Positions 531 to 29,650 of a stretch of 64,000 nt of DNA are shown piece after piece. Source of the stretch: Fibrobacterota bacterium (lineage in GTDB: Bacteria; Fibrobacterota; Fibrobacteria; UBA5070); contig JAKPQQ010000222.1 in the NCBI GenBank assembly GCA_029557215.1, forward strand, positions 18,481 to 82,480. The letters run 5' to 3'. Within the stretch, counting starts at the first letter, position 1. Each line of letters opens with the position of its first letter. The translations under genes and the position numbers were made by a program. The notes beneath the pieces were generated by a model. That model was not told the DNA's origin. It did not search any database and worked only from the letters and a program-made list of their open reading frames with translations.

Positions 531-1094
531 ATGTCGATCATCAACAGCCAAGTTCCTTCGTTCAAGGCCGAGGTCTACCACAACGACGCGTTCCGCACCG
601 TCACGGAAAAGGACATCGCGGGCAAGTGGACCATCTTCTTTTTCTATCCTGCCGACTTCACCTTCGTCTGCCCCACCGAACTGGGCGATCTGGCCGACAA
701 GTACGCCGAACTCCAGAAGATGGGCGTGGAAGTCTACAGCGTGAGCACCGACACCCACTTCGTGCACAAGGCCTGGCACGACGCATCCGATACCATCAAG
801 AAGATCAAGTACCCCATGCTCGCGGATCCCACCGGCGCCCTTTCGCGCGCCTTCGGCGTGCACATCGAGGAAGCCGGCCTCGCCTACCGCGGCACCTTCG
901 TGGTGAGCCCCGAAGGCAAGATCAAGATCGCGGAAATCCACGACAACGGGATCGGCCGCAACGCCGAGGAACTCGTCCGCAAGGTCCAGGCCGCCCAGTT
1001 CGTGGCCAGCCACCCCGGCGAAGTCTGCCCCGCCAAGTGGAAGCCGGGCGCCGCCACCCTCAAGCCGGGCCTGGATCTGGTCGGCAAGATCTGA
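531..1094 (+). CDS. ahpC: Alkyl hydroperoxide reductase subunit C (typical 2-Cys peroxiredoxin)
   Basis: 187 aa; motifs FTFVCPTE (peroxidatic Cys) and C-terminal resolving Cys (EVCPAKW); SD aaggag 7 nt upstream of ATG. Confidence 0.93.
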   Translation: MSIINSQVPSFKAEVYHNDAFRTVTEKDIAGKWTIFFFYPADFTFVCPTELGDLADKYAELQKMGVEVYSVSTDTHFVHKAWHDASDTIKKIKYPMLADPTGALSRAFGVHIEEAGLAYRGTFVVSPEGKIKIAEIHDNGIGRNAEELVRKVQAAQFVASHPGEVCPAKWKPGAATLKPGLDLVGKI

Positions 1095-1214: not shown

Positions 1215-1874
1215 TCAGGCCTTGCCGGAGATCTTGCTGACGCAATCCGGACAGATTCCGTGCGAGACCTTGGAACCTCCGTGCTCCTGGATGTACTGCT
1301 CGATCGTTTCCCAACCGCCTTCGTCGTTGCGGATCTTGCGGCACCAGGCGCAGACGGGCACGAGGTTGCGCAATTCCTGGATCTCTTCGCGGGCCCGGCG
1401 CAGCTCCAGGTGCGTGCGGACGCGGGCCAGCAGTTCTTCCGGCTGGAACGGCTTGCCCACGTAGTCGACCGCCCCCGCCTTGAACCCCTTGACCACATCC
1501 TCCGTGCTGGTGCGCGCGGTGATGAAGATCACGGGAATGTTCCTGGTCTCGGAACCGAGCCGCAGCACGGAGCAGGTCTCGTAGCCGTCGATCCCGGGCA
1601 TGTTGACGTCCAGGAGGATCAATCCGGGATGCGCTTCCTTGGCCAGCCGGTTGGCCACCACGCCGTTTTCCGCTTCCATCACCTCGTATCCGTCCTGCTC
1701 CAGCACACCGCGAAGGAGCATGCGGTTGAACTCGAGGTCGTCGGCCACCAGGATGAGTTCCTTCGACACATCCGCCCCCGAAGCACAGGACGCTGCACCC
1801 CCGCCCGACAGGGGTGGCGTTTCTTGGAATTCCGCGGATGGTTCGCTGTCGGACATTCGAGGAAAGTATCCCAT
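1215..1874 (-). CDS. Response regulator: REC domain plus C-terminal Cys-rich module (VCAWCRKIR...HGICPDC)
   Basis: ORF 1215..2111 trimmed to internal ATG (M80) because the N-terminal 79 codons overlap the divergent uvrA start and look non-coding; receiver motifs [27 protein letters not shown]; the C-terminal CxxC-x20-CxxC segment is a module I recall from delta-proteobacterial signalling proteins. Confidence 0.7.
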
Positions 1875-1923
1875 TTCGAATCGCGCAAGGACGAAGCCTT
1901 TCGAGGTTCGGCTTTGTATATTA

Positions 1924-1939
1924 CTGCTCAATTGAGCAG
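1924..1939. promoter_or_regulatory. Perfect 16-bp palindrome CTGCTCAATTGAGCAG in the RR/uvrA divergent intergenic region; candidate operator (CTG-N10-CAG, SOS-box-like)
   Basis: Read directly from sequence, ~40 bp upstream of the uvrA-fusion ATG at 1978. Confidence 0.35.
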
Positions 1940-1977
1940 AAATTTGTCTGCCATTCCGGAGAGGTCGGCTTTCGCCC

Positions 1978-7368
<5,391 letters not shown>

Positions 7369-28532: not shown

Positions 28533-29650
28533 ACAACCGCGACCCCAGGCAACCGCGGGTTCTGGTGGTCGACGACGAACGACAGAACCTGCAGATGCTT
28601 TCGGTGGTCCTGCGCAACGAAGGATATCTGGTCGACACGGCGGATTCCGGCGAGGCCGCGCTCGAGCGCGCGCGGTCCACCACCCCGGACCTCGTCCTCC
28701 TGGACATCCTGATGCCCGGGATGGACGGATTCGCCACCCTGGAACGGCTCAAGGGGATCGCGGGCGCATCGACGATTCCCGTCATCTTCCTGAGCGGCCT
28801 GGAAGACCTCGAAACCAAGCTCAAGGGCTTCTCGCTGGGCGCGGTGGACTACGTGACCAAGCCGTTCCACATCGAGGAGGTCCGCGCGCGCGTGCGGATC
28901 CACCTGCAACTGGCCCTGGCGCGCCAATCCCTGGTCCTGGAACAGGCATCCCGCCTCCGGAGCCTGGCCAGCGCCCAGAAGAGGCTGCAGGTCCTTCCGT
29001 CGGATCTTCCCGAGGCGAACTTCTCGGTGCTGTACGAATCCGCCCAGGAAGCCGGAGGCGACATCTACGACGTGCTCGCCGTCGGGAAAGGCATCCACGG
29101 GTTCCTCGTGGCGGACGTTTCCGGACACGACGTGGGCACGAGCCTGCTCGCGAGCGCCGCCAGGGCCCTGTTCCGGCAGAACACCGGACCCATGTACTCC
29201 CCCGAGGAGACGTTCAACCTGGTCAACCGCGTCCTCGCCGGCTGGCTGCCTCCCGGACGTTTCCTGACCGCATGCTACGCCCTGCTCAACCGCAACACGG
29301 GCAGGCTCTCGGTGGTCGGGGCGGCCCATCCTCCCGCGGCCATCCTGGACGCGTCGGGCAAGGCCCGCAGCCTGGACGTGGAAGGCGACGTGCTGGGCGC
29401 ATTCCCCGACGCGCGGTTCGGCCGGATCGACACCCGCGTCTCGAAAGGGGACCGCGTGGTCCTCTACACCGACGGCCTCGTCGAGAACATCGGCGGCGGC
29501 AGGACGTGGAACACCGAGGGGGATCGCGTCCTGCGCGAGCTCGAACGGCTCTCCGACGTCCCGCTCGGGGAGCTTCCCTCGCGCCTGTCGGCCGGACTTT
29601 CCGACGGCACGAGGGACGACGACGTGTTAGCGCTTGCTTTCGAGGTGTGA
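28529..29650 (+). CDS. Response regulator fused to PP2C/SpoIIE-type phosphatase (RsbU-like)
   Basis: 373 aa; REC (VLVVDDE..LLDILMPGMDG..KPF) then PP2C block (GGDIYDV, GFLVADVSGHDVGTS, LYTDGLVE). Confidence 0.8.
   Translation: MNNRDPRQPRVLVVDDERQNLQMLSVVLRNEGYLVDTADSGEAALERARSTTPDLVLLDILMPGMDGFATLERLKGIAGASTIPVIFLSGLEDLETKLKGFSLGAVDYVTKPFHIEEVRARVRIHLQLALARQSLVLEQASRLRSLASAQKRLQVLPSDLPEANFSVLYESAQEAGGDIYDVLAVGKGIHGFLVADVSGHDVGTSLLASAARALFRQNTGPMYSPEETFNLVNRVLAGWLPPGRFLTACYALLNRNTGRLSVVGAAHPPAAILDASGKARSLDVEGDVLGAFPDARFGRIDTRVSKGDRVVLYTDGLVENIGGGRTWNTEGDRVLRELERLSDVPLGELPSRLSAGLSDGTRDDDVLALAFEV

Follow-up and report, generated by a model that had tools for sequence, protein, structure and literature searches.

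The perfect 16-bp palindrome CTGCTCAATTGAGCAG, located upstream of a fused double uvrA gene in the window (the whole stretch of 64,000 nucleotides analyzed here), is probably a LexA (SOS) operator of the Fibrobacter type. The palindrome fits the pattern TGCNC-N4-GNGCA as well as the extended form CTGCNCA-N2-TGNGCAG, and uvrA belongs to the core SOS genes in many phyla. The alignments and scans described below showed that a conserved dyad sits beside a -10-like element, likewise conserved, before uvrA, and that the same class of dyad occupies an operator-like position in the lexA promoters of many lineages.

The end of the palindrome is separated by 38 nt from the ATG of uvrA at position 1978, which agrees with an earlier note on this DNA that had described a perfect 16-bp palindrome approximately 40 bp before the gene. 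The site lies in the 121-bp intergenic region between uvrA and a divergently oriented response regulator gene (Table 1), and the window contains no second copy, even when as many as three mismatches are tolerated. Palindromy by itself is weak evidence and not beyond chance, because six perfect 16-bp palindromes were observed in the window, as compared to 2.4 ± 1.4 expected from first-order Markov simulations. The other five (at 4807, 19878, 25076, 35256 and 46148) are all GC-rich, in a window with a G+C content of about 66%, and several have cores that resemble restriction sites (GCATGC, AAGCTT, GTCGAC, CGGCCG, CCGCGG). The significance of the 16-mer lies instead in its conservation in uvrA promoters, in the neighboring -10-like element and in its identity with lexA-promoter operators elsewhere.

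The element TGTATATT next to the palindrome would represent the core promoter of uvrA. No recognizable -35 element was found for uvrA, and a promoter scan detected no canonical sigma-70 promoter. This assignment would place the transcription start near position 1929, and the overlap between the start and the palindrome follows from that placement. The purine-rich GGAGAGG further downstream may be the ribosome-binding site of uvrA, and similar GGAGG-like runs are present in the uvrA leaders of the relatives.

Table 1. Features of the window, the uvrA sites of related species, and the boxes and gene strings of lexA loci.
Feature	Locus	Position	Strand	Description
Proposed 16-bp operator CTGCTCAATTGAGCAG	Window	1924..1939	.	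Two inverted CTGCTCA half-sites, 2-nt spacer; proposed LexA dimer site
-10-like element TGTATATT	Window	1915..1922	+	Hexamer TATATT at 1917-1922, TG before it; 1 nt upstream of the proposed operator
Purine-rich GGAGAGG	Window	1958..1964	+	Possible uvrA ribosome-binding site, read from the sequence
Fused double uvrA, 1796 aa	Window	1978..7368	+	Pfam UvrA_inter, UvrA_DNA-bind, ABC_tran; proposed target of repression
Response regulator, 213 aa	Window	1215..1856	-	Pfam Response_reg only; receiver domain and C-terminal CxxC...CxxC tail
uvrA site CTGCTCAAATGGGCAG	L015, L007			
uvrA site GTGCTCATTTGGGCAG	L009, L011			
uvrA site GTGCTCAAATGGGCAG	L012			
uvrA site GTGAACAGATGAGCAG	L013	3366-3381		
uvrA site CTGAACAAATGGGCAG	L008	3974-3989		
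uvrA site CTGTACAAACGAGCAT	L006			
lexA box GTGCACAAATGTGCAG	L072			Locus fetched by homology
lexA box CTGCACAAATGTGCAG	L074			Locus fetched by homology
lexA box	L085 (Eisenbacteria), L086 (Planctomycetota), L089, L090			Loci fetched by homology; box present
lexA box, degenerate variant CTGAACATAAGTGCTG	L087 (KSB1)	~2940-2990		Locus fetched by homology; between TTGACT and TATATT
lexA-dinB gene string	L072	6001-11070		
lexA-dinB gene string	L081	8001-13374		
lexA-dinB gene string	L085	3001-6102		
lexA-dinB gene string	L090	4001-8630		

The product of the uvrA gene is not a standard UvrA, and consists of two UvrA-like units fused head-to-tail. Pfam analysis identified PF17760 UvrA_inter (132-236), PF17755 UvrA_DNA-bind (294-357) and three ABC_tran stretches; the UvrB-interaction and DNA-binding insertion domains are found in the N-terminal half only. 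Full-length UvrA orthologues with 77-89% identity were identified in MAGs labelled Fibrobacteria, Fibrobacterota or Fibrobacteres, with a single exception labelled Methylacidiphilaceae. In addition, the adenylosuccinate synthetase encoded in the window is identical to that of the NCBI MAG GCA_035414825.1. The host is an uncultured, high-GC environmental Fibrobacteria MAG lineage. The organism also encodes flagellin (Flagellin_N/C) and many hybrid histidine kinases and receiver proteins (L077/L078, past the right end of the window, and 54-58 kb in the window). The exceptional orthologue is located on contig DBTH01000231.1 (L015, 3881-7143; label Candidatus Methylacidiphilaceae UBA1321). Its UvrA is 89% identical to that of the window and its uvrA promoter is nearly identical (TTTGTATCTTACTGCTCAAATGGGCAGAAATTTGTCTGCC); this is probably a Fibrobacteria contig that has been misbinned into a Verrucomicrobia MAG. 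More distant full-length relatives, with 38-52% identity, were found in MAGs labelled Planctomycetota, Desulfobacteraceae, Sutterella, Bacteroidales and Patescibacteria.

The regions upstream of uvrA were aligned for nine species, that is, for the window and eight related species. The mean column identity was 49%, and the regions were essentially unalignable save for two adjacent islands. The first island, TGTATnTT, contains a -10-like hexamer, TA(T/G)nTT, with a TG before it. Alignment columns T58, G59, T60, A61 and T64 are invariant, and the hexamer variants seen in the relatives (TATCTT, TATAAT, TAGATT and TAGTTT) all keep TA...T. The second island is the 16-mer itself, located 1-4 nt after the first, with the consensus CTGCTCAnnTGrGCAG and the invariant columns TG..CA...G.GCA. 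In the three most divergent sites (L013, L008 and L006) it is the left half that departs from TGCNC. A matrix scan of the window and of the flanking regions of the relatives revealed no additional sites. In five relatives (L006, L007, L009, L012 and L015) the sequence TGCCCnnnnGGGCA occurs within the coding part of uvrA, at +768 and at the same codon positions, and it is absent from the window; it looks like a coincidence of the coding sequence rather than an operator.

We scanned a metagenome collection for the box pattern CTGCNCANNTGNGCA, followed after 75-135 nt by a degenerate coding anchor, G-x-x-P-[ST]-x-[RA]-E-I, that corresponds to the N-terminal motif of LexA. The scan recovered 46 loci, 36 of which encoded LexA immediately downstream. 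Trial runs on viral contigs gave four chance matches, none of them with LexA. The chance of a box and lexA occurring together was roughly estimated as about 61 positions x 2^-26 per gene, and therefore roughly one match would be expected even per million lexA genes. The LexA-positive loci displayed one fixed architecture, TTGACA-n-CTGCNCAnnTGNGCAG-TAnnnT, with the box taking up the whole 17-nt spacer between the two elements of a promoter of the sigma-70 type. The -35 element, the last G and the -10 element provide independent support, since none of them was part of the scan pattern. Most of the recovered lexA operators were exactly TGCAC-AAAT-GTGCA. The LexA proteins of the boxed loci formed at least 11 clades at a threshold of 60% identity, with approximately 40-50% identity between clades, and three of the clades were recognized by their source names as Planctomycetota, Candidatus Eisenbacteria and KSB1/Calditrichota/Zixibacteria-like bacteria.

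Among lexA loci that were fetched by protein homology only, the box was present at the same place in six out of seven; the seventh, from KSB1, contained a degenerate variant (Table 1). We built a scoring matrix from 16 distinct lexA-promoter operators, which themselves scored 18.5-27.5 bits. On this matrix the uvrA site of the window reached 26.6 bits, within the range of the lexA sites, and two of the lexA operators, CTGCTCAAATGAGCAG and CTGCTCATTTGAGCAG, differ from it in the central spacer only. No other sites of 10 bits or more were found in the approximately 95 kb of the organism covered by the window and its extensions (L001 and L077), and no other SOS genes are present in these 95 kb. 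Searches by tblastn with the LexA and RecA proteins of E. coli and B. subtilis identified neither lexA nor recA in the window and the Fibrobacteria loci, and no lexA gene was found within 10 kb past either end of the window. None of the box-bearing LexA clades was assignable to Fibrobacterota. One of them, represented by L048, was considered as a Fibrobacteria candidate; its tetranucleotide correlation of 0.87, versus 0.85 for a Planctomycetota locus, gave no discrimination, and no genes were common to this clade and the Fibrobacteria loci.

The boxed lexA genes were often followed on the 3' side by a string of genes consisting of dinB (IMS family), sometimes DUF72, an Hrq1/YprA-like helicase with DEAD/Helicase_C/WHD_HRQ1/MZB domains, and an RNase_H_2 (PF13482) protein. 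Recurring in several unrelated LexA clades, the lexA-dinB string is a candidate SOS cassette. Another observation concerns locus L033, where a LexA-like protein of 210 aa is encoded on the minus strand at ~2372-2991 and a box, CTGCTCAAATGAGCAT, overlaps its start. This protein lacks the GDSM catalytic serine motif and reads QINGEERICSG, and is possibly a non-cleavable LexA paralogue.

The closest known counterpart comes from the same phylum. Mazon et al. are said to have shown in 2004 that the purified LexA protein of Fibrobacter succinogenes binds TGCNC-N4-GTGCA. Compared with this consensus, the window sequence TGCTC-AATT-GAGCA has the same 14-bp frame, fits TGCNC-N4-GNGCA, and shares a variable fourth base in each half-site. 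It differs from the F. succinogenes box in that the right half, GTGCA there, reads GAGCA in the window and GGGCA in the related species, and in that the flanking C/G and the inner A/T of CTGCNCA-N2-TGNGCAG are also conserved. The host, moreover, is a distant high-GC environmental lineage in which the site is a proposed target of LexA.

The SOS box of E. coli and the other gammaproteobacteria is CTGT-N8-ACAG. The window site resembles it in being a 16-bp palindrome with CTG...CAG ends before uvrA, and in the logic of a repressor whose operator overlaps the core promoter. However, the window site has C at position 4 and G at position 13, as opposed to the defining T and A, and the inner CA..TG is specified here, whereas the center of the E. 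coli box is AT-rich and loosely specified. The earlier note had recognized the CTG...CAG frame, and the flanking C and G are indeed kept in most sites. It had also likened the palindrome to the LexA boxes of gammaproteobacteria, but with C/G at the inner positions. The reading as a LexA box is well supported by the analysis, while a gammaproteobacterial variety is ruled out by the C/G at positions 4/13 and by the non-proteobacterial host: the site stands in Fibrobacteria and corresponds to the box that many uncultured lineages carry in their lexA promoters.

Two further box types show partial similarity. The LexA box of Myxococcus xanthus is CTRHAMRYBYGTTCAGS, and its GTTCAG half has a counterpart in the CTGAAC half found in L008 (CTGAACAAATGGGCAG), in L013 and in the KSB1 lexA operator (CTGAACATAAGTGCTG), whereas both halves of the window site are TGCTC, and it has no GTTCAG. 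The Cheo box of Gram-positive bacteria, GAAC-N4-GTTC, has the same 4-nt spacing between 5-nt cores and the same logic of a dimeric palindrome, and is similar to the TGAAC left halves of L008 and L013; the core is TGCNC here, as compared to CGAAC in the Cheo box. A drift of the half-site is thus visible in the KSB1 lexA operator (L087) and in the TGAAC left halves of these two Fibrobacteria uvrA sites. The LexA protein of F. succinogenes is mentioned as characterized in PMC3091678, and according to PMC3108266 the E. coli motif is not the one used by LexA of Planctomycetes.

If the palindrome is a LexA operator, a LexA dimer would bind to the two inverted CTGCNCA half-sites. The operator follows the -10 hexamer TATATT at a distance of 1 nt and spans the expected transcription start (~1929); LexA bound there would therefore prevent a productive RNA polymerase complex, and the fused uvrA gene would be held at a low basal level. 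When DNA is damaged, RecA filaments formed on single-stranded DNA would cause LexA to cleave itself, which would free the operator and induce uvrA. We infer the binding of LexA in this host, the promoter and start assignment, and the induction by damage.

It is unlikely that the palindrome is instead the operator of some other transcription factor acting on uvrA, for instance a damage regulator other than LexA, or a local HTH repressor with the same TGC...GCA symmetry. Such a factor would be in line with the finding that the LexA of the lineage was not detected in the window or the Fibrobacteria loci. Moreover, a chance match to the same pattern, in L041, lies before a TetR-like gene, and such palindromes can therefore serve other repressors. 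However, the extended 16-mer with its flanks is tied to lexA both in the 36 loci selected by the pattern and in six of the seven selected by homology, and no regulator gene was found to travel with uvrA across the relatives.

The palindrome could also be imagined to act as RNA, forming a 6-bp hairpin in the 5' leader of uvrA that serves as an attenuator, a terminator or a stability element. The 16-mer folds at -8 kcal/mol, a simple scan flags it as terminator-like with the tail AAATTTGTCT, and the stem is kept by G-U wobble in L015, L007 and L011. Yet, L013 and L006 no longer have the stem (0 kcal/mol) and L008 has almost none of it (-2 kcal/mol), while the identities TG..CA...G.GCA are invariant and no compensatory changes were observed. 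The tail, with five T in eight bases, is not conserved, there is no Rfam match, and the box in the lexA promoters sits between the -35 and -10 elements, that is, in DNA that is not transcribed. Taken together, these observations make a role as RNA very improbable.

According to the earlier note, the palindrome could equally be the operator of the divergent response regulator, which would use it for autoregulation or for the control of uvrA. The location of the site in the shared intergenic region is compatible with this idea, and so is the minus strand, where TAATAT in an AT-rich heptamer follows directly after the box, at the same distance as between the box and the -10 element in lexA promoters. 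However, the protein is a receiver-only protein with no known DNA-binding domain, and its Cys-rich tail of about 45 aa has no Pfam match. The gene is located next to uvrA in the window species only; it is adjacent in none of the eight relatives that keep the site, where homologues are found 2.1-2.7 kb away (L009 and L011) or are absent from the flanks. The gene upstream of uvrA varies: it is the response regulator in the window, a hybrid histidine kinase in L009 and L011, and a gene for a FecR-domain protein in L008 and L013. Since the upstream neighbor varies and no known DNA-binding domain is present in the response regulator, the 16-mer can be assigned to uvrA and not to the response regulator. 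The two readings are hence far from equal, and we consider control by the response regulator to be even less probable than a role as RNA. With LexA as the repressor, it is possible but speculative that the response regulator is co-repressed in the window species, because TAATAT follows the box at the spacing of the lexA promoters.

The window contains a paralogue of the response regulator at ~28541-29125 on the plus strand, which aligns over residues 29-211 with 37% identity; since the alignment reaches residue 211, the paralogue has the Cys-rich tail. At least eight further receiver-domain matches were identified in the window besides the protein encoded at 1215-1856. A strong hairpin of 13 pairs with T-runs on both sides, located at 1152-1181, is probably a bidirectional terminator between the convergent genes for a peroxiredoxin (531-1094, plus strand) and the response regulator.

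The least probable explanation is that the palindrome has arisen by chance and is without function: the number of perfect 16-mers in the window and the loose core TGCNC-N4-GNGCA, expected about twice per 64 kb from the base composition, would allow for it, but the site is a conserved island in the otherwise unalignable promoters of eight other species, which contradicts chance, and it matches an independently recovered class of lexA operators.

As judged from its sequence context, the uvrA site is most likely an ordinary SOS operator before a canonical SOS gene, with the SOS response understood as before. What is modestly new is that several little-studied phyla appear to have this class of boxes as their LexA operator, and that it often heads the lexA-dinB string there. 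On a tentative note, CTGCNCA-N2-TGNGCAG may be the LexA operator of many more poorly studied phyla than the one published Fibrobacter case, including Eisenbacteria, Planctomycetota, KSB1/Calditrichota-like bacteria and environmental Fibrobacteria. The drift of the half-site between TGCAC, TGCTC, TGCCC and TGAAC might then trace the path from the Gram-positive GAAC to the proteobacterial CTGT, and the box might control the cassette of lexA, dinB, sometimes DUF72, the Hrq1/YprA-like helicase and the RNaseH-like protein and, in Fibrobacteria, the fused double UvrA. The evolutionary series already known for LexA boxes hereby gains intermediate forms. Based on the presence of the box in the lexA promoter spacer of Eisenbacteria, Planctomycetota and several other lineages, comparative genomics gains a usable motif for SOS regulons in phyla without cultured models. 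For the genome studied here, the gain is a concrete regulatory annotation, namely that its unusual fused double uvrA gene is probably under SOS control.
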